Origin: a virus
Lineage: Duplodnaviria > Heunggongvirae > Uroviricota > Caudoviricetes
Reading direction: 5' to 3' (one strand)
IMG/VR virus record: IMGVR_UViG_3300047444_000299
Coordinates: 1-64,000 of that record
DNA length: 64,000 nt
The position numbers and the translations under genes were made by a program. The notes under the pieces were generated by a model, which saw nothing but the letters and a program-made list of their open reading frames with translations, was not told where the DNA came from and did no database searches. Positions 10,458-26,059 of this stretch are shown piece by piece (position 1 is the first letter of the stretch; each line of letters opens with the position of its first letter).

Positions 10458-10789
10458 CCACACGAAGTCGTCTGGGGCCGATTGTAGATGAGCCCCGGAA
10501 AAAGTACCGGATCAAACTTGTACCCGGTGCTGATAAGTTGACGTTCAATCGCTTGGTGCGTTATGACCCGGTTGAAAACTATTATATCCCAATATATGAG
10601 ACGGTAACCATCCCAGATGGTGAAGTGATCGATTACTTCCTTACAGAAGACTCGGAATCAAATCCCGTGCATCTGTTCGCTCGTCAATTTGATACAAGGC
10701 TGTTTGTCTTGACTCAAGACGTGGTGGACGGTGCTGTACTGGAACCCGGTAAGGGTAATAACCAGCATTTATGGCTACAAGAAATTTAA
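10454..10789 (+). CDS. hypothetical protein
   Basis: 111 aa ORF, overlapping stop/start. Confidence 0.45.
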   Translation: MTTRSRLGPIVDEPRKKYRIKLVPGADKLTFNRLVRYDPVENYYIPIYETVTIPDGEVIDYFLTEDSESNPVHLFARQFDTRLFVLTQDVVDGAVLEPGKGNNQHLWLQEI

Positions 10790-10806
10790 TCAAATTCGGA
10801 GTTTGT

Positions 10807-11940: not shown

Positions 11941-12550
11941 ATTGATCGTCGGTGGCGGTATCTATGAAAAGGGTCGCCACGAAGCATGGGACGCTAAGAG
12001 TAAGCGGAACACCAAAGAATATGAAACTTGGTATGGGTTCCTCAAGCGGTGTTCGGCTGCCATCCAAGCCACTGGAAAATTCAAATCCTATGTGGGATGT
12101 TCGGTTCATCCAGATTTTATCAAATTCCAAGACTTCGCGGAATGGTGCCAACATCAAATCGGATTTGGTAATGACGGCTGGGCATTGGATAAGGATATTC
12201 TGGTGCGGGGTAACAAGGTCTACGGACCTGATACCTGTGTGTTTGTGCCATCGGAATTGAATAGTCTGTTGACCCATGTACAGTCAACCAAAGGGGATCT
12301 ACCAACCGGTGTTTCTATAAAACCTATACGGGTTCCGAAATACAAGACCGATTATGATAAAACCCCAGTTTACAAGGCTCAAATTATGATCAGTGGGGCG
12401 GTGACATTCCTTGGATATTTTGATACCCCAGAAGCCGCCGAAGCTGTTTATAAAGTGGCCAAAACCAAAGAAATTCGTAGACGGGCTGAACTTGTGAAAG
12501 ATCAAATTGACCCACGGGCGTATAACGCATTGATGAATTATGTAGTTTAA
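11933..12550 (+). CDS. homing-endonuclease-like protein (degenerate HNH-like core + AP2 DNA-binding domain)
   Basis: GIYEKG..YxxW...FQDFAEW..WALDKDIL..YGPDTCVFVPSELN core and C-terminal AP2-like YKAQIMISGAVTFLGYFDTPEAAEAVY; non-ATG start; paralog at 45811. Confidence 0.5.
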   Translation: MNKLIVGGGIYEKGRHEAWDAKSKRNTKEYETWYGFLKRCSAAIQATGKFKSYVGCSVHPDFIKFQDFAEWCQHQIGFGNDGWALDKDILVRGNKVYGPDTCVFVPSELNSLLTHVQSTKGDLPTGVSIKPIRVPKYKTDYDKTPVYKAQIMISGAVTFLGYFDTPEAAEAVYKVAKTKEIRRRAELVKDQIDPRAYNALMNYVV

Positions 12551-12558
12551 GGAATATT

Positions 12559-13425
12559 GTGAGTAAATTAGTATTGACAATCGGGGTTCCCGGAAGTGGG
12601 AAGTCTACCCTTGCGCATAAATTTGTGTCGCAAGGGTATGTACAGGTCGAGCGAGACTTGTTGCGTAAAAAGTTCTACGGAACTTGGTATTCAAAAGGTG
12701 TTGATGAAAAACGCATCACCCACGCTCATGAAGAATTAATTCGTAATGCTTTGCGTAGTAACCTGAATGTATTTGTATCAGATACAAACATCAATCCAGT
12801 TACCCGCGAACATTTGATCAAATTTGGATCTAGCCTTGGTGCTGAAATCCAGTTGATCCACGTTGCACCTTACATGCTGCTTGATGATTTGATCCAACGC
12901 AATGCAAATCGCGATGATCAAACTAAAGTGGTTCCTGTAGGTGTGATGCAGCAAATGTATACCAGTTATCGGGAACAGTTTCCGATCATGGCCCCGGCTT
13001 ATGATTCATTGAAACAAGATGCGTTCTTGTTTGATTTGGATGGTACGGTTGCGGAAATGAATGGGATTCGCGGACCATTTGATTGGAAAAAGGTTGGAAT
13101 GGACGATGCACATTCTGATGTGATTGAAGTCTTGAAAGCTCTTGAAGTTGCTGGTAACAAACTGATCGGTGTATCTGGTCGGGATGAAGTATGCCGAGCT
13201 GAAACTATGGAATGGTTGCTGAAACACAATCTCCCAGAACATGGGCTGTGTATGCGCCCAACCGGATCGCAAATCAAAGATTCTGCTGTAAAACATGATT
13301 TGTATCATCGTTACATCGCACCGTATTACAACGTAAAAGGTGTCTTTGATGATAGGACACAAGTTGTAAAAACGTGGCGTAGCATGGGACTCCGGTGTTA
13401 CCAATGTGCCCCCGGCGACTTTTGA
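12559..13425 (+). CDS. pseT: polynucleotide 5'-kinase/3'-phosphatase (T4 PseT family)
   Basis: P-loop GVPGSGKST, HAD phosphatase motif FLFDLDGTVAEMNG, C-terminal WRSMGLRCYQCAPGDF nearly identical in pattern to T4 Pnk. Confidence 0.9.
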   Translation: MSKLVLTIGVPGSGKSTLAHKFVSQGYVQVERDLLRKKFYGTWYSKGVDEKRITHAHEELIRNALRSNLNVFVSDTNINPVTREHLIKFGSSLGAEIQLIHVAPYMLLDDLIQRNANRDDQTKVVPVGVMQQMYTSYREQFPIMAPAYDSLKQDAFLFDLDGTVAEMNGIRGPFDWKKVGMDDAHSDVIEVLKALEVAGNKLIGVSGRDEVCRAETMEWLLKHNLPEHGLCMRPTGSQIKDSAVKHDLYHRYIAPYYNVKGVFDDRTQVVKTWRSMGLRCYQCAPGDF

Positions 13426-13450
13426 TAAAAATATTTTAGAAATTTGTTAG

Positions 13451-13492
13451 AAATCTCCTACTAGATCGCTAAATAGATATAGAAGGAGATTT
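13451..13492 (+). promoter_or_regulatory. stem-loop sequestering the RBS of the GIY-YIG gene
   Basis: 8-bp inverted repeat AAATCTCC...GGAGATTT; 3' arm contains the AAGGAG SD 8 nt before ATG 13496. Confidence 0.5.
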
Positions 13493-13495
13493 TTA

Positions 13496-14197
13496 ATGAA
13501 CGAACATTATTGCTTATATCAAATTACAAACCTAATCAACGGTAAGATTTATGTTGGCGTCCACAAGACTGCTGACCCGCTAGATGGATATTTAGGATCT
13601 GGCCCATTAATACGAAAGGCTGTCGCGAAATATGGTCGTGAAAATTTCAGAAAAGATATTCTGGAAACTTATGAGGATTATGAATCCTTAAATCGCGCAG
13701 AAGCTGAAATCGTAACCAGAGAATTTATTGAACGTCCTGATACATATAACCTTGATTTGGGTGGTCGTGGTGGGAAGATTTTTACCGAAGATATGAAATC
13801 AAAAATTTCACAGTCTCAAAAAGATAGGTTTAAATCGAACCCAGACGCATGGAACACAGACATACGCCGCGTGGCTCAACGTAAGTATTTGGATTCCTTA
13901 ACCAAAGAAGATTATATAAGGATGTTTAGCAAACCGGGTGAATCAAATCCTATGTATGGGATTCCATGTCATTACAAAATGACAGATTCTGAGCGAGCTA
14001 ATTGGGCTGCCAATATTTCCGCTGCCAATAAAGGCAAGAAGCGAACCGATGCGCAAAAACAGAATTATTCTGACTACGCCAAACAGCGTTTTTGGATTGT
14101 GAATCAAAATGGTACGTGCGCTCATTGTCTGGATATTAATGATCCACGATTACTGGGTGGTGAATGGCAACGTGGTAAAAAGTGGAAAACTGTATGA
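13496..14197 (+). CDS. GIY-YIG homing endonuclease (Seg/I-TevI-like) with NUMOD3 repeats
   Basis: N-terminal YCLYQITNLINGKIYVGVH...GYLGSG (GIY-YIG), NUMOD3-like SERANWAANISAANKGKK. Confidence 0.8.
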   Translation: MNEHYCLYQITNLINGKIYVGVHKTADPLDGYLGSGPLIRKAVAKYGRENFRKDILETYEDYESLNRAEAEIVTREFIERPDTYNLDLGGRGGKIFTEDMKSKISQSQKDRFKSNPDAWNTDIRRVAQRKYLDSLTKEDYIRMFSKPGESNPMYGIPCHYKMTDSERANWAANISAANKGKKRTDAQKQNYSDYAKQRFWIVNQNGTCAHCLDINDPRLLGGEWQRGKKWKTV

Positions 14198-14442
14198 CTG
14201 ATAAGAAATTGTTCCAATTGGTTGCTAAGACCAAGCCTCAAGAAAAGATGACCCCAGAAATGAAAGCGGCTCTTGATGAAATGTATCAAGAGATTCTTAC
14301 AGGGGATGTTGATTTCATTATGGCAACAGGGGATTCTAACGGCGAAGACCCAGTTGGTTTTATTACCAATCTGGATACTGCGGGATCTAACCTGATGCTT
14401 GATCAAATGAAATTGGGCATTCTCATGGGCCAGATTGATTGA
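14194..14442 (+). CDS. hypothetical protein
   Basis: ATGA overlap with endonuclease stop; 82 aa. Confidence 0.4.
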   Translation: MTDKKLFQLVAKTKPQEKMTPEMKAALDEMYQEILTGDVDFIMATGDSNGEDPVGFITNLDTAGSNLMLDQMKLGILMGQID

Positions 14443-14768
14443 GAACCCTAACCGTGATTTTTGATGTGGTGTCGGTTTCATCGCCGTTCACCTCGTCAAG
14501 AATTACTCGGTATTACCAAGATACCCCAGAATCGGTGTTTGATATTATTCATGATTACCTAAAACTGTTCTTCAAAAATACAGGAATTGGGTATGTGGAT
14601 ATCGGTATCCGAGCTGATAGGGGTGCTTTCTCGAAGACATCCATGCAGAGGATTCGAGATATTATTGTGGAAAAAATTCTTGGTTATGCCGATGGCGATT
14701 TACCACTAACACAACTTCAACAATCGTTGTTATTCGACCGGTTAGAATCTGGTCGTCCAAAGAAATAA
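14439..14768 (+). CDS. hypothetical protein
   Basis: 109 aa ORF, non-ATG start; weak. Confidence 0.3.
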   Translation: MRTLTVIFDVVSVSSPFTSSRITRYYQDTPESVFDIIHDYLKLFFKNTGIGYVDIGIRADRGAFSKTSMQRIRDIIVEKILGYADGDLPLTQLQQSLLFDRLESGRPKK

Positions 14769-14778
14769 AGGATCTATT

Positions 14779-15822
14779 GTGAGCGAATTTGTTAAATATT
14801 CTTCCATCGAAAACTCTTACCAGCAACGTTTCCTCGACAAATGCGCTATGCATGTCGGGGATGCACAGATGGTTGCGGTGGAGAAAATCCACGGTGCCAA
14901 CTTTTCGTGGATTGCTGACGGGACATCTGTTCGGGTAGCCAGTCGTAACGATTTGATCGATGAATTGGAAACCTTCTACGGCCATACCCGGTTCTTCAAT
15001 CGGTACACACCGGTTGTAAAAGCTCTGTATGGTCTGGCTAAGAACGAGTTCCCCGGATTGGTTCAAATCAATCTGTTCGGTGAAATTTTCGGTGGTCGGT
15101 ATAATGGCGAATGCGCTCAGTCTGCCAAGAAAGTTCAAGATGGTGTGAACTACCATCCTGATAACGAATTCATGGCATTTGACCTGAAACTGACATTCGA
15201 TACCGGTGTGAGCCGTTATGTTCCATTCGTGGACTTGATCGATCTGCTATTTGATGCAAACTTCATCGCTCGGTTGCCGTTCGCAGACCGTATGCGTCAT
15301 GCGCCGGTTATCAAAATTGGTACTCTGGAAGAACTGATCAAAATTGATCCATTGTTCTATACCCACGTACCACAAGCATACGGACTCGAAACTGAATACC
15401 GTGAAAAGACTCCACTTGACTACGCGGAAGGTTTTGTGATCTGCGGGTATGAAGAAGACTTCTACATCGGCAACGAGCGTGTGATTCTGAAACAGAAAAA
15501 CGCCTTGTACGGTGAAAAAGTTAAAGAAGTCAAGATCAAATCGGCGGTGAACCTGTCGGAAGCCCAACAAGCCCTGCTGGATAAGGTTTGTTCGTACATG
15601 AACGAGAACCGCGTAAATGCAGTTCTATCAAAAGGTGTGTATGACCAGAAGTCGTTCGGCAGGCTGCAAGGCGATTTCACCCGTGATGCACTGGAAGACT
15701 TCGAGAAAGACGAGGGCTACCGGGCACAGGACTCCGAAGAATGGAATGTTCTGGGTAAACGTGTCGGTTCCCATGCGGCTCAGGTAATCAAGCCGGTTTG
15801 GATCAATCTCGATTTTTCGTAA
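14779..15822 (+). CDS. rnlB: RNA ligase 2 (T4 Rnl2 / gp24.1 family)
   Basis: N-terminus KYSSIENSY..VAVEKIHGANFS matches the Rnl2 KxHGxN adenylyltransferase motif; GTG start. Confidence 0.85.
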   Translation: MSEFVKYSSIENSYQQRFLDKCAMHVGDAQMVAVEKIHGANFSWIADGTSVRVASRNDLIDELETFYGHTRFFNRYTPVVKALYGLAKNEFPGLVQINLFGEIFGGRYNGECAQSAKKVQDGVNYHPDNEFMAFDLKLTFDTGVSRYVPFVDLIDLLFDANFIARLPFADRMRHAPVIKIGTLEELIKIDPLFYTHVPQAYGLETEYREKTPLDYAEGFVICGYEEDFYIGNERVILKQKNALYGEKVKEVKIKSAVNLSEAQQALLDKVCSYMNENRVNAVLSKGVYDQKSFGRLQGDFTRDALEDFEKDEGYRAQDSEEWNVLGKRVGSHAAQVIKPVWINLDFS

Positions 15823-15867
15823 TTGATGTAATCCTCCTAGGTAAATATGTCTAGGAGGACATCACTA

Positions 15868-16353
15868 ATGTCAAATTTTGAAAAAGCAATTAAAATTGTT
15901 CTGGCCCATGAAGGTGGGTATGTCAACAATCCGGCTGATCCGGGTGGTGAAACCAATTTTGGGATTACCAAACGAACCTACCCGAATGTAGATATCAAGA
16001 ATCTAACGGTAGACGGTGCAAAAGCCATCTATCTACGCGATTGGTGGCAGCCGAATGGTTATGATTCCATCATTAACGACGACGCGGCAACCAAGATTTT
16101 TGATACCGCCGTCAACGTCGGCAGCAAACGAGCATATCGATTCGCACAACAAGCCATGAATAAACAGGGTAAAGGTCTACAGGAAGACGGGGTGTTTGGG
16201 GTAGCTTCTATTACCGCACTGAATGCTTCCGATCCTGTACGATTCCTAGCCGATTTCCGTTCGATTCAAGCTGATTACTATAAAGGACTGGTAGCGGCCA
16301 AGCCGTCTCTATCTGTTTTCCTACGCGGTTGGCTGGCTCGGGCACAATCTTAA
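15868..16353 (+). CDS. GH108-family lysozyme-like protein with peptidoglycan-binding domain
   Basis: AHEGGYVNNPADPGGETNFGITKRTY motif (GH108) and PG_binding_3-like C-terminus; GGAGG SD. Confidence 0.75.
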   Translation: MSNFEKAIKIVLAHEGGYVNNPADPGGETNFGITKRTYPNVDIKNLTVDGAKAIYLRDWWQPNGYDSIINDDAATKIFDTAVNVGSKRAYRFAQQAMNKQGKGLQEDGVFGVASITALNASDPVRFLADFRSIQADYYKGLVAAKPSLSVFLRGWLARAQS

Positions 16354-16360
16354 AATAATC

Positions 16361-16400
16361 GAAACAGAATGTTGACACCCGTGTTTCATTCTGTTTTAAT
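16361..16400 (+). promoter_or_regulatory. sigma70-like promoter (TTGACA-N17-TTTAAT) embedded in a 10-bp inverted repeat AAACAGAATG/CATTCTGTTT
   Basis: perfect 10-bp inverted repeat whose loop contains TTGACA; lies upstream of natV. Confidence 0.45.
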
Positions 16401-16424
16401 GGCCACACATTGAGGGGATCAAGC

Positions 16425-17495
16425 GTGAGCAAAGTTAAAAAGTACGACCTAGCGGTTTTTATCGGGCGAATGGCACCACTGCATAATGCCCATCTGGAAA
16501 ACATTCAATTGGCAGATTCGATTGCTGATCGCGTTGTTGTGATTCTCGGCGGTGCTAACGCTCCGCGTGATGAACGAAATCCATTCAGTAACCAAGACCG
16601 TTCTCGAATGGTCGAAGCTGCAACCAGTGAAGCCGGGATCAAAGGTGTTGGCCTAGCCTTCATCAATGACAACCCATCCGATGATTTGTGGGCCGCTGAA
16701 ATCATGCGTCTGGCAAATCGTTACATTATGGGCATAGAGGCTCCGCGAATCGCAATCGTTGGGCACAAGAAAGATGATAGTTCATTCTATCTCGATTTGT
16801 TCCCAACGTGGGAATTCGTAGAAACCGGCGCAAAGATGCATGGCGACGAAGAAATGGCGGCAACATCAATCCGCAAACTGATGTTTGAGGATAATTTCGA
16901 ACCTGCCATGTACATGATGCCAGCATCTGTATACAACTACGTCAATTACGAATTCATCGGCTCCCCAGAGTATGATGCAATCCGTGAAGAATACATGTTC
17001 CACCAAGCTTACCCAGCAAAACGCCGTGCGTCTTACCCGATCAACGACGTTACCGCTGATGCTGTTGTTCTGTGCAAAAGCCACATCCTGTTGATTCGCC
17101 GTAAAAACATTCCCGGTAAAGGCAAACTGGCCCTACCCGGTGGATTCGTCAACACCAACGAAACGGTTGAAGACGGCGCGATTCGTGAACTGGATGAAGA
17201 AACAAAACTGCATGTACCTGAAAAGGTGTTGCGCAAGTCGATCATTGACGAAAAGCGGTTCGATAATCCGAAACGTTCCCTTCGCGGTCGGCTGATGACC
17301 TTCGCATTTACTTTCAAGATTGATACAAATCATGACGGTAGCTTGCCACGGGTTTACGGTTCCGATGACGCTGATAAGGCGTTCTGGGTTCCAATCTCGG
17401 ATATCTCGGCCCCTGAAAACGCGGCTGACTTTTTCGAAGACCACCACAACATCATCATGACCATGATCGGTCGTGCTGCGAAACAACAAAACTAA
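16425..17495 (+). CDS. natV: bifunctional NMN adenylyltransferase / Nudix hydrolase (NatV-like)
   Basis: N-terminal cytidylyltransferase motif (LAVFIGRMAPLHNAH), C-terminal Nudix box (GGFVNTNETVEDGAIRELDEET); GTG start with GAGGGGA SD. Confidence 0.85.
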   Translation: MSKVKKYDLAVFIGRMAPLHNAHLENIQLADSIADRVVVILGGANAPRDERNPFSNQDRSRMVEAATSEAGIKGVGLAFINDNPSDDLWAAEIMRLANRYIMGIEAPRIAIVGHKKDDSSFYLDLFPTWEFVETGAKMHGDEEMAATSIRKLMFEDNFEPAMYMMPASVYNYVNYEFIGSPEYDAIREEYMFHQAYPAKRRASYPINDVTADAVVLCKSHILLIRRKNIPGKGKLALPGGFVNTNETVEDGAIRELDEETKLHVPEKVLRKSIIDEKRFDNPKRSLRGRLMTFAFTFKIDTNHDGSLPRVYGSDDADKAFWVPISDISAPENAADFFEDHHNIIMTMIGRAAKQQN

Positions 17496-17520
17496 TTCAA
17501 TTTTCGAGGAGTTCGAAAGA

Positions 17521-19014
17521 ATGACAGCTTTCAATACAGAGTTTAACAAAGACAACGCAATCCTGATGGATTTCAACCCGGATAACCTGATCCTGAAATC
17601 CGATTCATACAAAGGTGGTCACTGGGAAATGCTCCCGGCTGGCGCTCAGTACCTGTATTCCTACGGGGAATCGCGTGGATCTGATCAATACGCTGTACGT
17701 GGTGTCAACGAAGGTTACACCTACACAGTTTTCCACGGTCTGCAAGGTATTCTGAAACGTCACTTCTCTAGTCGCCTGACTATGAAAGATGTTGATGAAG
17801 CCGAAGAACTGGTAGAGCTGCATATGGGACCGGGCGTTTTCAACCGTAAAGGTTGGGAACAGATTGTTACCCAGTTCAAAGGTAAACTGCCACTGCGTAT
17901 CCGCTGCCTGAAAGAAGGTACGGTTGTTCCTACCGGCAACGTTCTGTGGACTGTTGAAAACACCCACCCGGACTTTGCATGGTTGGTTTCGTACTTCGAA
18001 CCGCTGTTCCTGCAAGCGTGGTATCCAATTACGGTTGCTTCTGTTTCGTACAGCATCCGTCAAGTGGTAGAACAAGCTTTCCGTCAGTCGGTTGACGAAG
18101 GTGTTGGTAGCCAATTCAAGCTTCACGATTTCGGCTATCGCGGTGTATCCAGTAACGAATCGGCCCGTATTGGTGGTGCTGCTCACTTGGTGGCCGGTTG
18201 GATGGGTAGCGATACCATTCAGGCTGTTATCGAACTGAAAATGCACTACGGCGTGAAGAAAGGCGAAATGCCTGCCTTCTCGGTTCGTGCAACGGAACAC
18301 AGTGTTGTGTGTGCAAACTCCAACGCTGACACCCGCGACGATTCCAACGCTCTGGAAATGGCGATCCAACTGCTGGAGAAACACAAGGGCATCGTAGCCT
18401 GTGTGGGTGATACCTATAGCATTCGCCGTTTCGCGGAATGGTGTGCAACCGATCCGATCAAAACCCGAATCATCAATTCCGGTGGTACGTTTGTACTGCG
18501 CCCAGACTCTGGCAACCCGCTGGAAATTCCGGTCGAAATCATCGGTATCCTGATGGCTGGGTTTGGTTACACCGTGAACAGCAAAGGCTACAAAGTCCTG
18601 CCGAGCTGCATCCGAGTTCTGCAAGGCGACGGTATCAACGAATCCAGCATTCGTGGCATCTACGACAATATGTTCAAAAAGTCGCGTATGTACTCTGCTG
18701 ATAACATCGTTTTCGGTATGGGCGGCGCCCTGCTGCAACACTGCGACCGTGATTGGCTCAAATTTGCCATGAAAGCGGCTGCACTGTGCAAAAACGGCAT
18801 CTGGACTGACCTGTTCAAAGACCCGGACACCGATTCAGTTAAACGGTCGAAGAAAGGTCGAGTGACCACGTTCAAAGATTCGAGTGGGAAATACTTCTCG
18901 GATCGTATCGAACTGCAAGAAACCAATCACACAATCGTTGACCAACTGGTTACGGTGTGGGAAGACGGCGACCACATTATGCAGTGGGCGTTTAGCGAAA
19001 TCCGCATCCCGTAA
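17521..19014 (+). CDS. nadV: nicotinamide phosphoribosyltransferase (NAMPT, NadV-like)
   Basis: NAMPT motifs (LKSDSYKGGHW, FGYRGVSS, GSDT); 498 aa; GAGGAG SD. Confidence 0.9.
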   Translation: MTAFNTEFNKDNAILMDFNPDNLILKSDSYKGGHWEMLPAGAQYLYSYGESRGSDQYAVRGVNEGYTYTVFHGLQGILKRHFSSRLTMKDVDEAEELVELHMGPGVFNRKGWEQIVTQFKGKLPLRIRCLKEGTVVPTGNVLWTVENTHPDFAWLVSYFEPLFLQAWYPITVASVSYSIRQVVEQAFRQSVDEGVGSQFKLHDFGYRGVSSNESARIGGAAHLVAGWMGSDTIQAVIELKMHYGVKKGEMPAFSVRATEHSVVCANSNADTRDDSNALEMAIQLLEKHKGIVACVGDTYSIRRFAEWCATDPIKTRIINSGGTFVLRPDSGNPLEIPVEIIGILMAGFGYTVNSKGYKVLPSCIRVLQGDGINESSIRGIYDNMFKKSRMYSADNIVFGMGGALLQHCDRDWLKFAMKAAALCKNGIWTDLFKDPDTDSVKRSKKGRVTTFKDSSGKYFSDRIELQETNHTIVDQLVTVWEDGDHIMQWAFSEIRIP

Positions 19015-19030
19015 TTGATGTAAATAAAAA

Positions 19031-19052
19031 GGAGCCGAAAGGCTCCTTTTTT
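19031..19052 (+). terminator. rho-independent terminator
   Basis: GGAGCC-GAAA-GGCTCC followed by TTTTTT. Confidence 0.8.
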
Positions 19053-19053
19053 G

Positions 19054-19082
19054 TTTAGAATGAATCGAAACTGTGATATGAT
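19054..19082 (+). promoter_or_regulatory. sigma70-like early promoter TTTAGA-N17-TATGAT
   Basis: matches the recurrent (ctg)TTTAGA-N17-TAtaAT pattern of this region. Confidence 0.5.
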
Positions 19083-19106
19083 TCTGTTTCTAATGAGGAA
19101 TTAAGA

Positions 19107-19307
19107 ATGTACGACGAAACCGATGACAGCCTCCCGTTCAACTCTAGTTCGGAATTCAACGAGCGTAAGTTTCAATTCATTTTGAACTACTGCCTTGCCG
19201 AACGTACCAGTGGTAATGGCTCAGACATGGGATATGCCCACAACCGAAACGATTTGGTTGAAGCTGCGAGTAGCTTGTATGAAAAAGCCCTCGAAATCTG
19301 TCAGTGA
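19107..19307 (+). CDS. hypothetical protein
   Basis: 66 aa ORF downstream of promoter. Confidence 0.4.
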   Translation: MYDETDDSLPFNSSSEFNERKFQFILNYCLAERTSGNGSDMGYAHNRNDLVEAASSLYEKALEICQ

Positions 19308-19320
19308 GCCTGACGGCTTG

Positions 19321-19512
19321 ATGGCTGGGAAGGTAATCAAAATCACCCCACACGTCCCATTTTACAAACAGAATGGGTGTTCTGTCACGAAAGAGTGGCA
19401 AGAAAACTTTACAGATCGAATCGGAAACAAAGCAATCCTGACTCATTGTGAGTACACGGATAAGAAAGGCAAAATTCATACCTGTGTTATCCGGGTAAAG
19501 TGGAGTAATTGA
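19321..19512 (+). CDS. hypothetical protein
   Basis: internal ATG chosen to avoid overlap; 63 aa. Confidence 0.3.
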   Translation: MAGKVIKITPHVPFYKQNGCSVTKEWQENFTDRIGNKAILTHCEYTDKKGKIHTCVIRVKWSN

Positions 19513-20321
19513 TGGAATTCAGACTGATTTCTGATACACATTTAGAATGGTATGCATCCTTTGCGATGCCGTCACTGCCACACATCAACGGTGACAAGGA
19601 ACGTGTGTTGGTCATCGCCGGGGATTTCCATACCCTGAAACGGGCTGAGAACGTTGCACCCCTGTTGACTGAATACGGCCAGAGATTCAAGGCGGTTGTG
19701 TACGTTCCGGGGAATCACGAATACTACGGCAGCGTAATCAAACCGATGTCCAACCTGTTCAATTTCCAGAAAATGAACCCGGAAGGCTTGGATAACATCC
19801 ACTTCCTGATTCGTGACTCTATCGTAATTGATGGAATTCGTTTCGTCGGGGCCACGCTCTGGACTGACATGAATGATCGCGACCCTATCGCGGAATATCA
19901 ATTGAGTACCGGAATGAACGATTTCCGGGTGATTGATTACCATGATGAAAAGTTTGATCATTATGGTAAGTTCAAGGCGCGGCACTGGCAAGCCGAGCAT
20001 CACAAGGATTTGACGTATATCGCAGAGGAAGTTGGTAATTCGATGGAACCCTGTGTGGTTGTGACACACCATCCACCAAGTGCCCGTAGTCTCGACCCAA
20101 AGTTTGCAGATGCATCAAATTACTACATGAACTACGGCTATCACTCGGTATTGGACGAATTCATTCTGGATCGCCCTAGCATCAAATTCTGGTGCCACGG
20201 CCACGTTCATATCGTTCATGACTACATGATTGGTGACACCAATGTCATTTGCAACCCGTATGGCTACCCTGATCAAGACGACACAGGGTTTCTCGAAAAA
20301 AGTTTTTACAGAATTCATTGA
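19512..20321 (+). CDS. calcineurin-like metallophosphoesterase (CpdA/Icc-like phosphodiesterase)
   Basis: MPP motifs DTHLE, AGDF, GNHEYYG, TLWTD..., VVTHHPP, HGHVH; 270 aa, the size of cAMP phosphodiesterase CpdA. Confidence 0.7.
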   Translation: MEFRLISDTHLEWYASFAMPSLPHINGDKERVLVIAGDFHTLKRAENVAPLLTEYGQRFKAVVYVPGNHEYYGSVIKPMSNLFNFQKMNPEGLDNIHFLIRDSIVIDGIRFVGATLWTDMNDRDPIAEYQLSTGMNDFRVIDYHDEKFDHYGKFKARHWQAEHHKDLTYIAEEVGNSMEPCVVVTHHPPSARSLDPKFADASNYYMNYGYHSVLDEFILDRPSIKFWCHGHVHIVHDYMIGDTNVICNPYGYPDQDDTGFLEKSFYRIH

Positions 20322-20345
20322 CATTATGTTTTGAGTCGGTAGAAT
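20318..20345 (+). promoter_or_regulatory. sigma70-like promoter TTGACA-N16-TAGAAT
   Basis: near-consensus hexamers overlapping the 3' end of the phosphoesterase gene. Confidence 0.6.
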
Positions 20346-20374
20346 GGCGATATCAAAACAAAACGGTGATTGTA

Positions 20375-20644
20375 ATGAAACAGATTAAAGCGTTCTACGC
20401 GGCAAAGGTTACCCCTGTGCTTCGCCCGGTAGCGGTCTTCTTGATCATTCTGGGTAGTGCCGCACCGGTCGGTAAAGCAATCGGTATTATGGTATATGGT
20501 TGGATTTGTGGTATGAGCCAACCTACCACGATGTACGAAGACGTATTTGTCATGATCGGTTCGGCATTCGTCGGGGTTATGACTATCGCCTATTACATGA
20601 GTGCAATTTACCGAATTATGAAAAAACATTTCGAAACTGTTTAA
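20375..20644 (+). CDS. small integral membrane protein (NfeD-like partner candidate)
   Basis: about 3 hydrophobic helices; immediately upstream of the SPFH gene. Confidence 0.5.
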   Translation: MKQIKAFYAAKVTPVLRPVAVFLIILGSAAPVGKAIGIMVYGWICGMSQPTTMYEDVFVMIGSAFVGVMTIAYYMSAIYRIMKKHFETV

Positions 20645-20688
20645 AACAGAATCAAAATGTAGTATGATGTACATGTAACCCGGTCATA

Positions 20689-22071
20689 ATGACCACAAAC
20701 AAAACAAAGGATAGATTAGTGAGCAGTATTCTCGGATTTGAAGTAAACAAGAAACTCGGTTGGATGGCTGGTGTCGCAGTCGCCGCTCTGTTGTTCGTTT
20801 GGCTCATGTTTAGCAGCATGTTCTATTACAACAGCGCTGGCTACATCACTCAGGTTCAAACCAAGTTCCCAACTCAGGGTGAAAAGGTTGTTAGCACTAC
20901 AGGTTACACCTACATCGGTTTCGGTACGGTAACCCCGTGGCCCCGTCAGATGTCGGTTCAATCTGTTCTGGATACATCGACATTGCCGAAAGGTGACTTC
21001 GACGGATTGGGTTCTTCTCTGATTCCAGCCTTCGGCGTAACGTTCCTTGGTGGTGTGGTTGCCACGGTTGATGCAAACGTTCGTGTGGCCCTGCCAGAAG
21101 GTGAAACCTTCCTGCAACTGGCTCGAACCTACCGCACCCCGGACAACTTTGTTCTGCAATCGATCATGCCGGTAATGAAATCTACGCTGCAATCGACTGC
21201 CCAGTTGATGACCGCCGATGATTACTACAACGGACGTTCGACTGAATTCCGTCAGAGCTTTCAAGATCAAATCACCGATGGTTCGTATGTTGTGAGCCGC
21301 GTTGAAAAACAAGTCAAGAACACCCGTGCTGCGGCTCAAGGTGCAATCGTACAGAATGGTACAGCTCAAGGTGAATTCGGCGGCGACACCACTACTGTTG
21401 TGACCACCGAAAAGGTACTCGACCCAAAATCCGGTCTGCCGATTCGTCTGGAACGTCAGTTCTCGAAACTCGGTGTAACCGTAGCCGATGCGAACATTTT
21501 GAACATCGATCCGTCGCCTCAGTTCAAAGAGCGTATGAAAGCGGTTCAACAGTCGCAAGCTGATTTGTCTATTGCTCGCCAAGGTCGTCAGACTGCCGAC
21601 GAACAAAAGAAATTGGTTACCGCCAAGGGTGAAATGGAAGTTGAGCAGAAACGCCAAACTACCATGAAAGATCAGGTTGAACGTACCACCAACGCCGAAA
21701 CCGAAAAGCAATTGGCACTGACCAATGCTAATCGTGAGCAGGAAAAGGCTTCGATTGAGAAAGCAACTTCTCAGATCAAATACGAACAAGCCCAGATTGA
21801 TGCAAAGACCACCAAAGAGAAAGCCGAAGCCGAGGCGTATGCCAAGAAAGCGGTAATCATGGCGGATGGTGCTTTGACTCAGAAACTGGCGGCGCGTGTT
21901 GAAATCGAAAAGGTTTGGGCTAACGCATTCGAACATGCCAAGGTTCCACAACTGGTTATGGGTGGTTCTGGTGATGGCACTGGTCGTCAATCCGATGCAC
22001 AAACCCTGCAACAACTGGTAGGTATCAAAGCTGCGAAAGACCTCATGCTGGATATGAAAGTCTCTCAATAA
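20689..22071 (+). CDS. SPFH/band-7 (flotillin/HflKC-like) membrane protein with long C-terminal coiled coil
   Basis: N-terminal TM helix; SPFH-like core; Ala/Glu/Lys/Gln-rich coiled coil; alternative GTG start at 20720 has a better SD. Confidence 0.65.
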   Translation: MTTNKTKDRLVSSILGFEVNKKLGWMAGVAVAALLFVWLMFSSMFYYNSAGYITQVQTKFPTQGEKVVSTTGYTYIGFGTVTPWPRQMSVQSVLDTSTLPKGDFDGLGSSLIPAFGVTFLGGVVATVDANVRVALPEGETFLQLARTYRTPDNFVLQSIMPVMKSTLQSTAQLMTADDYYNGRSTEFRQSFQDQITDGSYVVSRVEKQVKNTRAAAQGAIVQNGTAQGEFGGDTTTVVTTEKVLDPKSGLPIRLERQFSKLGVTVADANILNIDPSPQFKERMKAVQQSQADLSIARQGRQTADEQKKLVTAKGEMEVEQKRQTTMKDQVERTTNAETEKQLALTNANREQEKASIEKATSQIKYEQAQIDAKTTKEKAEAEAYAKKAVIMADGALTQKLAARVEIEKVWANAFEHAKVPQLVMGGSGDGTGRQSDAQTLQQLVGIKAAKDLMLDMKVSQ

Positions 22072-22087
22072 TCAAAATTGAATAAGG

Positions 22088-22110
22088 AACCCGGCGAAAG
22101 TCGGGTTTTT
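22088..22110 (+). terminator. rho-independent terminator (family B: ACCCGGCGAAAGTCGGGTTTTT)
   Basis: hairpin + T-tract; identical sequence recurs at 53551 and 55893. Confidence 0.75.
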
Positions 22111-22113
22111 AAT

Positions 22114-22386
22114 ATGAAAAAGATCCCAAATTTGTTTCTAAAAGGTTTCGCCTCGGTACGTGCTAATGACGGTTTCCAATTTGGTGTAACCGGTCACAGT
22201 ACGATGATCGTCAAGCGACGTTTCACCGAAAACTTCAAATCGCATTACACCAAGTTCGATGATCAAACCGATTATATTCTGGTTCAACCTGTCAACCCGG
22301 TGGCCCTGAAAGGCTTCTTGAATGACATGAAAGGCACCAACGTAAGCGGCGACGAGCTGATTCGTCTTTTGATGGAACAGCTTTGA
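22114..22386 (+). CDS. hypothetical protein
   Basis: ATG immediately after the terminator; 90 aa. Confidence 0.45.
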   Translation: MKKIPNLFLKGFASVRANDGFQFGVTGHSTMIVKRRFTENFKSHYTKFDDQTDYILVQPVNPVALKGFLNDMKGTNVSGDELIRLLMEQL

Positions 22387-22979
22387 TCGTCACCGGTATT
22401 GGCTCTAGGGATATTGATGCAATCCAATTTGAGATTTGTCAGAAAGTCGCTAGAGTCTTCGCTAATAAAGGCTGGCATTTGCGGTCTGGTGGTGCTAGAG
22501 GCGCGGATAGTGCTTGGGAATTGGGATTTTCCGAATCTGATCGAAAGACAATCTATCTCCCAGAACCAAATTTCAACGGTCGCCCTAATACCGGGTGTTA
22601 TAAAGTCCCTGATACATTCGGGGATGTTTGGTTCGAAGCCCGCGAAATAGCAAGCCGACTTCATACCCGATTTGATCAACTCGATGAATTTGGACAGAAC
22701 GCCCATACCCGCAACGTGTTTCAGGTATTAGGTGACGACCTCAAGTCAAAAGCTGATTTGGTCGTCGTGTGTGCCCCACCAAGAGGCAAAACGGTCAAGG
22801 GTGGTACGGCTACAGCGTTCAATCTTGCAAAGGGCTTGAGAATCACCACATTCAATCTCTGGGAGCCCCAAGATCGGGAAGCCCTTTATAAAATCTACGC
22901 ACAGGAATTGATGCATGAACTCGCTCAGCGTTCCAACACCGGTCACGATCTTTTCGCAGCGTGTGTTGATTCACCTTAA
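22383..22979 (+). CDS. SLOG/DprA-like Rossmann-fold protein (standalone)
   Basis: GIGSRD...GWHLRSGGARGADSAWELG...TIYLPEP...VVVCAPP pattern typical of DprA/LOG/SLOG domains. Confidence 0.55.
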   Translation: MIVTGIGSRDIDAIQFEICQKVARVFANKGWHLRSGGARGADSAWELGFSESDRKTIYLPEPNFNGRPNTGCYKVPDTFGDVWFEAREIASRLHTRFDQLDEFGQNAHTRNVFQVLGDDLKSKADLVVVCAPPRGKTVKGGTATAFNLAKGLRITTFNLWEPQDREALYKIYAQELMHELAQRSNTGHDLFAACVDSP

Positions 22980-23007
22980 CGAAATCAAAGAAGTCATCGC
23001 CAAGGCG

Positions 23008-23217
23008 ATGGTTAACGCCCCGGTAACCGGGTTGAATCGAAAATCCCTCAAGCTGGAATTTGATGTAAAGGTTTCACCTGCATGTTGGGATTTCTTCGAG
23101 GCGAACGGTCACGATTTGCTGTATCTCGGTGGCTGGGAATTCAACGAATTCAATATGGGTGAGGATTTCACAATCGAAATCGGTATTACCGGCACCTACG
23201 AATCCAGCTTTCGATAA
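23008..23217 (+). CDS. hypothetical protein
   Basis: start uncertain (ORF extends upstream to 22915). Confidence 0.3.
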   Translation: MVNAPVTGLNRKSLKLEFDVKVSPACWDFFEANGHDLLYLGGWEFNEFNMGEDFTIEIGITGTYESSFR

Positions 23218-23233
23218 TTATTTTTCGATTCTG

Positions 23234-23262
23234 TTTATTACAACTCAAAACTGATATAGAAT
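23234..23262 (+). promoter_or_regulatory. sigma70-like promoter TTTATT-N17-TAGAAT (possibly leaderless)
   Basis: -10 ends 6 nt before ATG 23269 and there is no SD. Confidence 0.4.
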
Positions 23263-23268
23263 AGGCTC

Positions 23269-23571
23269 ATGAGCAAACAACTAAGCAATACATTGGTGCA
23301 ATATTCGGCGGTAGCTGATACCCAAAAGATCAAACTGAATATCGGTGATGTTCGGGATCTGACTGCCCGCAAGACCTTCTACGAATCCGCAACTGTTTCG
23401 GCTATCACCATCCTCAGTTGGGTTGCCGACAATCTGCCGATTTCGTTTGAAGAACGCAAAAACATCGAAGCCCTGATTCAATCGGTGGCGAAAGAACCGG
23501 GTTTGGACAAAATCGAGCTGTCTGAGCAGCTTAACACCCTGTTGGCGATTGCCAACCACTACACCAAGTAA
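23269..23571 (+). CDS. hypothetical protein
   Basis: 100 aa ORF. Confidence 0.45.
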   Translation: MSKQLSNTLVQYSAVADTQKIKLNIGDVRDLTARKTFYESATVSAITILSWVADNLPISFEERKNIEALIQSVAKEPGLDKIELSEQLNTLLAIANHYTK

Positions 23572-23579
23572 GGTATTTG

Positions 23580-23939
23580 ATGAAAAGTCAAAAAGGCAAT
23601 TCGGCGGTTGAATTACTGATCTACGGCGCAATTCTGATGGTGATCCTGTTGTTTGGCGGTGCCAAAGCGATTCTGTATCTGGCTACCGGCAATGATGTGG
23701 TTGTCACTGTGTCCGACAAGGGCGAACGCTGTAAGTCGGTCGGCAACTGCACGTACCTGATTTATACCGATCATGGCACATTCGAGAACCGAGATTCGTG
23801 GTTGAATTGGAAATTCAATTCGTCCGACATCTACGGCGATATCAAGCGTGATACCAAGTATCAGTTCCATACCAATGGTATTCGCGTACCGTTCCTGAGC
23901 TGGTATCCAAACATTTCTAAGGTACAGGAAGTCAAGTAA
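23580..23939 (+). CDS. hypothetical membrane-anchored/secreted protein
   Basis: N-terminal hydrophobic segment (AVELLIYGAILMVILLFGGA). Confidence 0.45.
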   Translation: MKSQKGNSAVELLIYGAILMVILLFGGAKAILYLATGNDVVVTVSDKGERCKSVGNCTYLIYTDHGTFENRDSWLNWKFNSSDIYGDIKRDTKYQFHTNGIRVPFLSWYPNISKVQEVK

Positions 23940-24421
23940 TGGGAACACTTCTGGGTGGTATTTTCGCAGTCGCCGCATTGGCACATCAATTTGATGTGGA
24001 CAAGGGTGGTAAGGCATACATCCTGCATTGCATTACCGTAATGCAGAATGCTCAAAAGATGGGCGTTACCAGCGAAGTCAGTCTTGCACTCGCGGCTTGC
24101 CATGATGTCAAGGAAGACCACCCGGAACTGCTTCAACATTTATTGATTCATGCCAAAGCCCACGGTGTCATTGACGAATTCGAATCTGGTCTGGATTTAC
24201 TGACCCGGCGCCCTGATGAATCCTATGAGGATTTCATCAAACGCATTATCGCATCGGGCAGGATCGACATTATTCGGATTAAAAAGGCCGATCTTAAACA
24301 CAACTCCTGCATTACAAGGCTCAAGGGCGTGCGTCCTAGCGATATCGCTAGGATTCAGACCTACCACAAAGCTTGGATGGAATTGGAGAACACGGAAAAA
24401 AATCTGAATGTTGTTATCTGA
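23939..24421 (+). CDS. HD-domain phosphohydrolase, SpoT/Mesh1-like small alarmone hydrolase candidate
   Basis: H...LALAACHDVKED motif equals the RelA/SpoT hydrolase LLHDVVED signature; 160 aa, the size of SAH enzymes. Confidence 0.6.
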   Translation: MGTLLGGIFAVAALAHQFDVDKGGKAYILHCITVMQNAQKMGVTSEVSLALAACHDVKEDHPELLQHLLIHAKAHGVIDEFESGLDLLTRRPDESYEDFIKRIIASGRIDIIRIKKADLKHNSCITRLKGVRPSDIARIQTYHKAWMELENTEKNLNVVI

Positions 24422-24599
24422 TTATAAAAAATTGCTTGCAAGTCACGACTGGTTCTATCAGTATAGCGATGACGGCAAGGTGTATCGCTCGGGGAGAGCA
24501 GCGTTTGAGACACTTTGCCGTCAACAGGCAATTTTGGATTTGGACGCTTCGATCTGGAACGAACATTGCCCACCTGATTACAAGCTGTACAAAAAATAA
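24408..24599 (+). CDS. hypothetical small protein
   Basis: 63 aa. Confidence 0.3.
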   Translation: MLLSDYKKLLASHDWFYQYSDDGKVYRSGRAAFETLCRQQAILDLDASIWNEHCPPDYKLYKK

Positions 24600-24632
24600 C
24601 CAAAAACATAAAGCATTAGGAGCAGGGTCGGA

Positions 24633-25466
24633 ATGGGCGCAGTTGCGGCAGTTGCAGATATGGGTTGTGCAGAAAGTGTTTGCATTTCCTTTGCAGGTGG
24701 TGTAGTCAAATTTGGTCCGTCCTACGACGATCTGGTACATCAAGCAGTCGATGATGTCAAGGTCATCCAAGGGGATGTCCGCAACCTTCCGAAGAATTTG
24801 ATTAAAATCTTCGACAAGTATGCAACCAAGCAATCGCTCGGCAGCGAGTTTACTCCCTGCGATGATGTCGGAGATAGTGGGTACGACATCGAATTTATCT
24901 CCGAAGTGTTGGGTAAGTGCTTTATTTTCATCGGGAATGGCTCGTTCGCGGAGGTTTTCAGCATCGACCCTGAATGGGTGCTGAAAGTCAACTGCCATGA
25001 CAACTTTCATTCGCCGGTTGACGGTGGGTTTGGGTGGATGAAGACCTGCACCAAGCATCAAGGGAACCCGTACATTCCTAACCTTTCATCGATTGAACAG
25101 CGTGGACATCTGTACATCGCTGTGGTAGAGCATCTGCATTTGGGTGTTGGCCTGTCGTTTGAGGATGGTTCGCTGGGTGACCTGTCAGAAGAATCCTATA
25201 GCCCTGACTTTGATGTAAACCTGTACATGGACGAAGCTGAATTTACATTCGGCCAGTTCATCAAACACAGCCCAAAAGATGCAATTGAAGCAGCTCGGGT
25301 TTACGAATCACATCGTAAAGATGTACGCGGCTGTGATGACATCAGCCGGGACAATGTTATGCACCGGGGCGGGTTTCCGGTACTGACAGACCCGATCTGT
25401 GATACAGGTAGTGGCTATACGCAATTGGAACAAGGCTCGTCGTTTTCATGGATGTCGAAAAACTGA
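24633..25466 (+). CDS. protein-kinase-fold protein 1 (APH/ePK-like)
   Basis: Gly-rich loop IGNGSFAEVF, VLKV lysine, catalytic DDISRDN, metal-binding LTDPI. Confidence 0.5.
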   Translation: MGAVAAVADMGCAESVCISFAGGVVKFGPSYDDLVHQAVDDVKVIQGDVRNLPKNLIKIFDKYATKQSLGSEFTPCDDVGDSGYDIEFISEVLGKCFIFIGNGSFAEVFSIDPEWVLKVNCHDNFHSPVDGGFGWMKTCTKHQGNPYIPNLSSIEQRGHLYIAVVEHLHLGVGLSFEDGSLGDLSEESYSPDFDVNLYMDEAEFTFGQFIKHSPKDAIEAARVYESHRKDVRGCDDISRDNVMHRGGFPVLTDPICDTGSGYTQLEQGSSFSWMSKN

Positions 25467-26059
25467 TTGATTGTCTAATTACTGGTGATTTGCAGGGGGC
25501 ATTCCAACATGCTCCCCGCGTTTTCCACGAAACCCTAGAGCTGCAACGCTTGATGCCGGTGGGTTGGAAATATCACGGAACAGGGTTCTACTCGTCGGTG
25601 ATTGGGCAAATTGATTCTGATAAGGTGTTCAAGCTGTCGTGGAAAGGGTCCGATCCTTGGATTCAGTACGCGGAGCATGTAACCCGGCATATGGATTTAA
25701 ATCCATTGATGCCGAAAATTTATAATCTGGTTGTAGATGATGGTCGAGCAATTGCCTGTATGGAACGGCTCTATGAGTCTGAAATCGTTCATAGTGTTGG
25801 TATGTCGAATGTTGTAAAACTCTGTAGAAATCAATGGTTTAGCAATCAGTTTAAAACTCTGAATGCCAAGCGAAAGAAAATTGCAGATTTTTTGCGATAT
25901 CAGTTTGACATGCGCGGGAACCGGAATTACAATACAAACAACCTAGCAGATATTGTGATTTGGATGGCTGGGTTACCGGATGCGAAAGTGGATTGTCACG
26001 GGTCAAACTGGATGATTCGCACCACCGGACAACTCGTTCTTACCGATCCAATTGGATAA
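25448..26059 (+). CDS. protein-kinase-fold protein 2 (paralog of upstream gene)
   Basis: HGTGFYSSVI G-loop, VFKL lysine, catalytic VDCHGSNWMI (HxDxxxxN), LVLTDPI. Confidence 0.5.
   Translation: MDVEKLIDCLITGDLQGAFQHAPRVFHETLELQRLMPVGWKYHGTGFYSSVIGQIDSDKVFKLSWKGSDPWIQYAEHVTRHMDLNPLMPKIYNLVVDDGRAIACMERLYESEIVHSVGMSNVVKLCRNQWFSNQFKTLNAKRKKIADFLRYQFDMRGNRNYNTNNLADIVIWMAGLPDAKVDCHGSNWMIRTTGQLVLTDPIG

Follow-up and report, generated by a model that had tools for sequence, protein, structure and literature searches.

A standalone DprA-like SLOG protein of tailed phages, a candidate binder of ADP-ribose-containing ligands, and the recurrent association of its family with NAD+ and ADP-ribose counter-defence genes

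The DprA domain binds single-stranded DNA (ssDNA) through two signatures defined in the HpDprA structure, G-S/T/A-R and F/L/Y-x-x-R-N/D, with Arg52, Arg143, Asn144 and Gly164 gripping a thymine that is flipped into a conserved pocket (PMC3950713). Second DprA copies bear an A-M-x-R-N/D variant of the second motif; single-domain DprAs exist, so the SAM and DML1 domains are not strictly required; and the LOG family, which can readily be mistaken for DprA, has the signature PGGxGTxxE (PMC3950713). In the SLOG superfamily, the ligand-binding or active site is formed by polar and glycine-rich loops that follow strands 1 and 2, together with the helix or loop behind strand 3 (PMC9503650). Here we describe a SLOG gene in a 64,000-nucleotide stretch of Caudoviricetes DNA (positions 1 to 64,000 of IMG/VR record IMGVR_UViG_3300047444_000299, hereafter the window). 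It encodes a standalone DprA-like protein, the SLOG protein, which we tentatively regard as a non-catalytic binder of an ADP-ribose-containing ligand acting in counter-defence.

DprA/Smf proteins of jumbo phages have been noted as a possible extra ssDNA-binding protein (Iyer et al., 2021). Among the 21,191 viral proteomes examined by Iyer, Burroughs, Anantharaman and Aravind (2022; PMC9503650), SLOG domains occurred in 7% of small, 19% of medium and 31% of jumbo phages, co-occurring and fused with Macro, NADAR and DUF4326 domains. These viral SLOGs, termed experimentally uncharacterised by the authors, were proposed to sense derivatives of ADP-ribose (ADPR or ADPr) or to cut ribosyl N-glycosidic bonds in cyclic ADPr-like (cADPr-like) signals; the idea of an ADPr ligand for viral SLOGs is not new, having been anticipated there. 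NARP1, NARP2 and NARP3 were characterised later, together with the Macro phosphatase Adpp of NARP1 operons. RyDEP, also encoded within a NARP1 operon, is a cyclic ADP-ribose (cADPR) glycosidase or sponge, some homologues sequestering rather than cleaving; Adpp and RyDEP both handle ADPR derivatives and provide NARP1 with ADPR. The phage proteins AdfN (NADAR) and AdfM (Macro) strip ADP-ribose from DNA, and ShosA, a DprA-like defence-associated protein, binds ssDNA and RecA. Estimates put the share of bacteria protected by NAD+-centred immunity at >15-20%. DprA and SLOG proteins go unmentioned in the papers on NARP1/2, NARP1-AP, NARP3, RyDEP, structural modelling of sponges, AdfN, AdfM, HIDEN-SEQ and phage Tn-seq. 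The recurrent physical association of a SLOG family with NARP1 and NARP2 operons, of which we found no description, may be novel.

The SLOG gene follows, and slightly overlaps, a short open reading frame (ORF):

22114..22386, + strand: ORF of 90 amino acids (aa); its TGA stop shares nucleotides with the TTG start of the SLOG gene, and translation of the two is probably coupled
22383..22979, + strand: gene for the standalone DprA-like SLOG protein, 198 aa, PHROG 768 family

The overlap (TTGA) is also present in the two closest metagenomic relatives, L003 and L004. The amino-termini of homologues align at MIVTGIGSR, as does that of the SLOG protein, and the TTG start call is therefore sound. The SLOG protein matches PHROG 768 ("DprA-like DNA recombination-mediator protein") over nearly its full length (E 1.3e-53; residues 2-174 against profile positions 5-181 of 191) and has 48 homologues, the best at E 3.8e-120. 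When 1.84 billion cluster representatives were searched exhaustively with a profile, 6,631 matched at E<=1e-3, of which 2,903 reached E<=1e-30. By tblastn, 1,458 of 50,697 phage records contain a member, all at <60% identity, the main hosts being Klebsiella, Pseudomonas, Escherichia, Aeromonas, Vibrio and Acinetobacter. An identical protein is encoded on a 130-kb metagenomic contig. Megablast of window positions 20000-26000 against the phage collection gave no match, hence no close isolate relative; the nearest isolate relative, by protein, is Pseudomonas phage Milchi (45% identity). The ORF is not a chance reading frame but a genuine phage protein of the PHROG 768 family. For the upstream ORF, only 6 homologues were found, all in close relatives (P0271 is 100% identical over 90 aa); it has no Pfam or PHROG match, and its AlphaFold2 model (predicted local distance difference test, pLDDT, 49.7) is too poor for a fold search. 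Its product could be a partner protein.

The AlphaFold2 model of the SLOG protein, built on a 49-sequence alignment, has a mean pLDDT of 92.5 and a predicted template modelling score (pTM) of 0.86. Beyond the SLOG domain there are only about 25 C-terminal residues, which are poorly predicted, so the absence of a fused effector remarked on in the preliminary description is borne out. The structure comparison figure is highest for DprA 3MAJ (14.9), followed by HpDprA 4LJK and the Moco carrier protein (both 13.9), ShosA (13.1), LOG-like proteins (about 12-13), YpsA (11.2) and the ThsA SLOG domain with 3'cADPR (10.1). The Foldseek ranking agrees (HpDprA, E 7e-6; ShosA, 6e-5; Moco carrier protein, 2e-4; LOG, 2e-3; ThsA SLOG, 3.7e-3), and among the structure matches listed there is no known sponge (Tad1, Tad2, Acb2, Sequestin, Lockin or RyDEP-type). 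The SLOG protein has the features of the SLOG superfamily (Rossmannoid TIR-DrHyd-SLOG class), and the model, PHROG 768 and the structural matches all uphold its initial classification as a standalone SLOG/DprA-like protein, the type being DprA.

Of ThsA SLOG, DprA and LOG, the nearest to the model is DprA. ThsA is the type I Thoeris 3'cADPR sensor (7UXS); its SLOG domain shares superfamily and fold with the SLOG protein and is a non-catalytic binder of an NAD-derived nucleotide, but it is not the closest relative, and the effector fusion of ThsA-type sensors is absent from the SLOG protein. Membership of a ThsA-like sensor group was rejected, the similarity being weaker than that to DprA.

Sequence-level similarity to characterised proteins is marginal. 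A search of PDB sequences with the family profile retrieved DprAs only, at E ~1e-3, and one with the single SLOG sequence gave only a spurious match; the Moco carrier protein, a cofactor carrier, has no sequence-level match to the SLOG protein. With hhalign, only the N-terminal 48 columns of the family profile aligned to E. coli Smf, and the remaining Smf motif correspondences given below were taken from the Smf sequence and the HMMER alignment. Curated models score the SLOG protein below their cut-offs: Pfam DprA PF02481 gives 21.6 against 29.6 bits (residues 6-56 only), SLOG LDcluster4 16.1 against 26.3 bits and TIGR00732 14.9 against 191.15, although some homologues do bear a precomputed PF02481 match.

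The similarity to ShosA raises the question of an orphan antitoxin, a phage copy of the DprA-like antitoxin of ShosTA or PsyrTA systems that would replace the labile host antitoxin during infection. ShosA works with no contact to its toxin, so that a homologue might take its place, and orphan antitoxins are known in phages (AdfN and AdfM). PADLOC does match the SLOG protein to PsyrA (E 4.4e-6) and ShosA (E 0.0086), but only over about 48 residues (6-53) of the shared glycine-rich core. ShosA has a SAM domain, a C-terminal helix for dimerisation and stability, RecA binding and a ShosT partner, none of which is found in the SLOG protein; no PRTase-type toxin gene adjoins the SLOG gene, its neighbours being unrelated. 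As such a role would also leave the NARP, NADAR and DUF4326 links described below unexplained, we consider it highly improbable.

Four motifs make up the predicted pocket:

22401..22409, + strand: G7-S8-R9, DprA motif 1 (G-S/T/A-R), aligned by hidden Markov model (HMM) with HpDprA Gly50-Arg52, Arg52 being the pocket switch
22479..22508, + strand: L33-RSGGARGA-D42, glycine-rich loop after strand 2, compare SGLARGID of Smf (HMMER and hhalign)
22701..22715, + strand: A107-H-T-R110-N111, DprA motif 2 in a variant like A-M-x-R-N/D, in the helix after strand 3
22800..22817, + strand: G140-G-T-A-T-A145 loop, equivalent of DprA SGSLxTA, at the place of LOG PGGxGTxxE (HMM alignment to HpDprA residues 147-183)

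The layout is that of E. coli Smf (VVGSR, SGLARGID, FPRRNRII, SGSLVTAR). The sequence patterns quoted in the preliminary description are all present, namely GSRD (residues 7-10), G..LRSGGARGAD.A...G (30-48), IYLPEP (57-62) and VVVCAPP (127-133). Conservation was counted over 74 distinct family sequences. In motif 1, the glycine is found in 74/74, the second position is Ser in 66, Thr in five and Ala in three, and the arginine is kept in 73/74. In the glycine-rich loop, G36, A38 and D42 are present in 74/74 and G40 in 72/74, all four being invariant in alignment A1. In motif 2, position 107 is Leu (52), Ala (8), Met (8) or Phe (6), R110 is present in 74/74 and position 111 is Asn (70) or Asp (4); the motif lies in helix 102-116 of the model, where SLOG proteins have their active or binding site. 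G141, T142 and A145 of the GGT loop are likewise found in 74/74. The loops expected of a SLOG protein, GIGSR, RSGGAxGAD and HTRNVFQVLG, are invariant or nearly so, and the invariant residues G7, R9, G36, A38, D42, R110, N111, Q114, G141, T142, A145 and N158 map to the C-terminal ends of strands and to the helix after strand 3. The polar residues R34, H94, H108, Q114 and N158, also at strand ends or in that helix, are invariant or nearly invariant in the family, but not in E. coli Smf. The pocket thus appears DprA-like, yet it may be more tightly specified than generic ssDNA binding needs.

Since both DprA motifs for ssDNA binding are intact family-wide, a DprA-like activity on ssDNA, which the preliminary description had set against its own proposal of a signal sponge, is a genuine possibility, although in our estimate a rather unlikely one. 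The SLOG protein would then be a minimal DprA, a recombination mediator or protector that coats phage ssDNA and loads a RecA/UvsX-type recombinase, and its NAD-related neighbours would reflect a shared early accessory region. The motif substitutions found across the family are exactly those permitted in DprA, the best structural and sequence matches are to DprA and ShosA, the latter binding both ssDNA and RecA, and the 2021 jumbo-phage survey regarded phage DprA/Smf as a candidate additional ssDNA-binding protein. The third DNA-binding arginine of HpDprA and ShosA (R170/R261) is represented by Arg or Lys in 40/74 members; in the SLOG protein itself it is N147, and the net charge of the protein is slightly negative. 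At about 180-200 aa, the protein lacks the SAM and the C-terminal winged-helix/DML1 domains of most DprAs (RF domain PF02481; HpDprA 4LJK/4LJR, RpDprA 3MAJ, SpDprA 3UQZ) and, as stated, scores under both the Pfam and the TIGR00732 DprA cut-offs. The additional invariant residues R34, H94, H108, Q114 and N158 suggest a more specific ligand. Its family is found in phages and elements like integrative and conjugative elements (ICEs), and its partners there, adjacent or fused, are NAD/ADPR enzymes and not competence genes. The window does contain a T4-like replication region (helicase, primase and topoisomerase II), but families like recombinases or UvsY are not among the recurrent neighbours, and a plain ssDNA mediator leaves the NADAR and DUF4326 fusions and the Adps-Namat operons unexplained.

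The LOG signature PGGxGTxxE, with its catalytic glutamate, is absent: residues 139-147 of the SLOG protein are KGGTATAFN, and there is no Pfam LOG match. Membership of the LOG-type N-glycosidases (PF03641) was rejected for want of the motif, which also separates the protein from the LOG/PpnN phosphoribohydrolases. Because this motif is missing and the nearest structures (DprA, ShosA and the Moco carrier protein) are binders, we favour a binder over an enzyme. An enzyme would cleave a glycosidic or phosphoester bond in a non-canonical product of NAD+ breakdown or an immune signal, such as N1- or N7-cADPR, His-ADPR or an ADPr-base adduct, to give linear ADPR, from which NARP1 would remake NAD+ or which the Nudix/NARP2 route would recycle; it would be a third NARP accessory enzyme beside Adpp and RyDEP. 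An active site might be built from the family-specific invariant residues D42, H94, H108, Q114 and N158. N-glycosidic ribosyl bonds are hydrolysed by catalytic SLOG/LOG members, and an attack of viral SLOGs on cADPr-like molecules has been predicted (PMC9503650). Both characterised accessories embedded in NARP1 operons yield ADPR, and the SLOG family is operonically coupled to Adps-Namat in two loci described below (L029 and L049). However, the R-N helix and the GSR loop are shared with non-catalytic DprA, and RyDEP was described in a 2026 report as the first known degrader of 2'/3'cADPR, found after a screen of 72 phage lysates, which argues against widespread 2'/3'cADPR cleavage, although the list of phages was not checked for the family. 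We regard catalysis as quite unlikely.

Gene neighbourhoods were compared in 80 IMG/VR loci with 10-kb flanks, two isolate loci and the window, with ORFs called and neighbours clustered; de-replication of the anchors at 60% identity left 57 lineages. The commonest neighbour within 10 kb is NAMPT/Namat-like (13 of the 57 lineages), followed by PhoH (11), Clp-protease-like (10), metallophosphoesterase (9), Prs/Adps-like (8), Macro (8), ATP-dependent DNA-ligase-like (8; assigned from sequence reading, with no profile search) and RNA ligase (7). At least one of NAMPT, Prs and Macro is present in 16 lineages. The NAMPT-like neighbours form two groups: Namat-like proteins, always accompanied by a Prs/Adps-like protein (NARP1), and NAMPT, including that of the window (NARP2-type). 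In five of the 13 NAMPT-linked lineages the gap to the DprA-like gene is <1.2 kb (binomial p = 0.014 against a uniform spread). In a control anchored on PhoH (28 loci from a profile made with a four-sequence alignment, some sharing contigs with DprA-like loci), NAMPT, Prs or Macro occurs within 10 kb in 0 of the 21 loci that have no DprA-like gene.

In L029 and L049, a DprA-like gene is followed directly by an Adps-like and then a Namat-like gene; an overlap of 4 nucleotides joins the first two in both loci, and the Adps-like and Namat-like genes overlap by 23 nucleotides in L029 and are 10 nucleotides apart in L049. This looks like an extended NARP1 operon, of which we found no description. 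The three-gene arrangements occupy 9974-13030 in L029 and 9986-13111 in L049, and in the latter a DUF4326 gene follows Namat. L047 and L050 have the order Adps-Namat-x-DprA, and Pakpunavirus-like phages, including the isolate LCK69, whose DprA-like protein is AZF89725, have Adps-Namat-x-Macro-x-x-DprA. In L020 (8407-12801) the genes after the DprA-like one encode, in order, a PolyA_pol/CCA-adding-like nucleotidyltransferase, an AAA_28 protein and the Adps-like and Namat-like proteins. We take the AAA_28 family to hold the NadR ribosylnicotinamide-kinase domain, and the L020 genes could be a composite NAD-salvage cluster. The genes for the NARP1 accessories Adpp (Macro) and RyDEP (RyR-domain) lie in or beside Adps-Namat operons, and the family is similarly placed in L029, L049, L047 and Pakpunavirus; the folds of Adpp and RyDEP are nevertheless unrelated to that of the SLOG protein, and the partner pathway in the window is of NARP2 type and 3.4 kb away.

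NADAR genes directly adjoin the DprA-like gene in L026 and, immediately downstream of it, in the bacterial contigs L143 and L159; in L024 the adjoining gene encodes DUF7831. In bacterial genomes (L117-L166, mostly Novosphingobium and Sphingobium) the family belongs to a conserved block that also holds DUF1173, DUF736 and a staphylococcal-nuclease-like gene, which we take to resemble an ICE or conjugative-plasmid region. In Aeromonas phage AS-zj (T4-like) and phAPEC8, the DprA-like gene lies among unrelated genes. Escherichia phage phAPEC8_ev052 (L085) encodes a SIR2-family protein (12593-13408) 5 kb downstream of its DprA-like gene, and one small ORF (309 nucleotides) upstream of the SIR2-family gene lies a gene for a Ser/Thr-phosphatase-type metallophosphoesterase.

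Members of the family are mostly standalone, and the best 120 word-indexed homologues all are (158-213 aa); fused forms surfaced only in the exhaustive HMM search. These are NADAR-SLOG (P0175 and P0186), DUF7831-SLOG (P0213), DUF7831-SLOG-NADAR (P0253) and DUF4326-SLOG (the five cluster representatives P0142, P0166, P0167, P0200 and P0270, and locus L076). The metagenomic proteins P0134 and P0135, of about 1,480 aa, combine DprA-like, YAcAr and LDcluster4 SLOG domains with a C-terminal NADAR domain and are reminiscent of the polyvalent injected proteins that the Aravind group has described. The standalone form, the occurrence in large phages and the Macro, NADAR and DUF4326 neighbours are shared with the viral SLOGs of Iyer et al. 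2022 (PMC9503650), and the fusions reproduce the picture drawn there. The fusions and neighbourhoods of the family are those of a viral SLOG of the NAD+-ADPr network, so that the link to NAD and ADP-ribose suggested in the preliminary description holds at the family level, through recurrent NARP1/NARP2, Macro, NADAR and DUF4326 neighbours and fusions with NADAR, DUF4326 and DUF7831.

A binder of an ADPR-containing ligand accounts both for the DprA-type nucleotide pocket seen in the sequence and for the NAD+/ADP-ribose counter-defence context, and is therefore the reading that we prefer, with the reserve already expressed. One nucleotide-like moiety would be clamped, most likely without catalysis, by four elements: the Gly-Ser-Arg and SGGAxGxD loops, which follow strands 1 and 2, respectively, the R-N helix behind strand 3 and the GGT loop. 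The ligand would most probably contain ADP-ribose; it might be free and derived from NAD+, as ADPR itself or as a signal made of cyclic or conjugated ADPR, or it might be an ADP-ribosylated base on ssDNA. Expressed from an early or middle accessory region of the phage, the protein may sequester this ligand or hand it over to partner enzymes of NAD+/ADPR counter-defence, NARP2 in the window and NARP1, Macro/Adpp, NADAR or DUF4326 proteins in relatives. The cADPR sponge of the preliminary description would be a sub-case of such binding, which our results neither support nor exclude; nothing in the analysis singles out cADPR-type Thoeris signals as the ligand. A bolder extension, which we think doubtful, is that the family is an unrecognised, widespread accessory of NAD+ reconstitution. 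It would capture an immune ADPR product that NARP cannot use directly, and then sequester it or pass ADPR to Adps/Namat or Nudix/NAMPT; candidates are N-glycosidically cyclised or conjugated ADPR (N7-cADPR, His-ADPR) and ADP-ribose attached to ssDNA.

Several observations weigh against binding of an ADPR ligand in counter-defence. The pocket residues are exactly the ssDNA-binding ones of DprA, of which plain ssDNA would be an equally direct reading. Within their flanks, 41 of the 57 lineages (~72%) have no NAMPT, Prs or Macro gene, the 13 NAMPT-linked lineages reduce to about 6-7 independent clades, and the PhoH control is small, partly overlaps the test set and is weak. The NAD genes of the window are 3.4 kb from the SLOG gene, with five unrelated ORFs between, and a promoter and terminator scan of 15500-25000 gave nothing above shuffled expectation and no operon boundary. 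The ICE- or plasmid-like setting of the sphingomonad homologues also fits the handling of incoming ssDNA, as DNA enters single-stranded there. The isoelectric point (family median 8.3, range 4.9-9.7; SLOG protein 6.5) is uninformative as to DNA binder or sponge, its mixed values within the family being a further unfavourable point. Our literature search for phage DprA-like or SLOG proteins found no experimental work and no binding or activity data.

The question concerns a large family, with 6,631 clusters at 50% identity and members in therapy phages (Pakpunavirus, and T4-like phages of Klebsiella, Acinetobacter and Cronobacter), annotated everywhere as "recombination mediator" by homology alone. 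Each characterised gene of NARP1 operons (Adpp, RyDEP) revealed a further layer in the arms race, and the recurrent placement in or beside NARP operons, together with the NADAR and DUF4326 fusions, makes the SLOG gene a concrete candidate for the next. Should capture of immune ADPR prove true, a DNA-uptake fold would have been repurposed as an interceptor of immune signals in ~3% of sequenced phages; should the protein be a plain ssDNA mediator, the published prediction for viral SLOGs would be corrected.

In the window, the surroundings of the SLOG gene are a T4-like replication and RNA-repair region, with all genes on the + strand:

1047-2492, + strand: DnaB-like helicase
3263-3601, + strand: standalone DUF4326 protein (Pfam DUF4326, 84.5 bits)
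3607-4629, + strand: primase
5894-9015, + strand: topoisomerase II subunits
10771-11940, + strand: RNA ligase 1
12559-13425, + strand: polynucleotide kinase
14779-15822, + strand: RNA ligase 2
16410-17495, + strand: bifunctional NMNAT (cytidylyltransferase-like)-Nudix enzyme (Pfam NUDIX, 1.8e-16; CTP_transf_like, 1.9e-7)
17473-19014, + strand: NAMPT, 513 aa, GTG start (Pfam NAPRTase, 1.7e-38; NAMPT_N, 4.7e-23; PHROG 448, E 6e-138)
19509-20321, + strand: metallophosphoesterase, calcineurin-like
20689-22071, + strand: SPFH protein
23939-24421, + strand: metal-dependent phosphohydrolase-like protein (PHROG 990, no Pfam match)
25448-26059, + strand: gp0.7-like kinase

The NMNAT-Nudix and NAMPT genes overlap by 23 nucleotides, and from their domain matches the pair is predicted to be a NARP2-type NAD+ reconstitution system. 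The gene order from NMNAT to the DprA-like gene is syntenic with that of Pseudomonas phage Milchi, where the former is named "cytidyltransferase". Five ORFs and about 3.4 kb separate the NAMPT gene from the SLOG gene, which lies downstream of it on the same strand; this agrees with the earlier remark that NAD+ salvage genes are close by, though they are not adjacent; co-transcription is possible. The DUF4326 gene is located between the replicative helicase and the primase, 19 kb upstream of the SLOG gene; DUF4326 has been predicted to be a phosphatase acting on ADPr-linked phosphates (Iyer et al. 2022, PMC9503650). There are no tRNAs in the window, and in this setting the SLOG gene is one more ordinary member of its family.

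A complete RNA-repair set (10771-15822) precedes the NAD genes, and the metallophosphoesterase (19509-20321) and the phosphohydrolase-like gene (23939-24421) flank the SLOG region. Two long antisense ORFs, 20716-22068 (- strand, 450 aa) and 17605-18741 (- strand, 378 aa), span nearly all of the SPFH and NAMPT genes, respectively. In the loci compared, their BLAST matches occur only in close relatives, alongside the sense genes, and they are probably a by-product of codon composition rather than genes.

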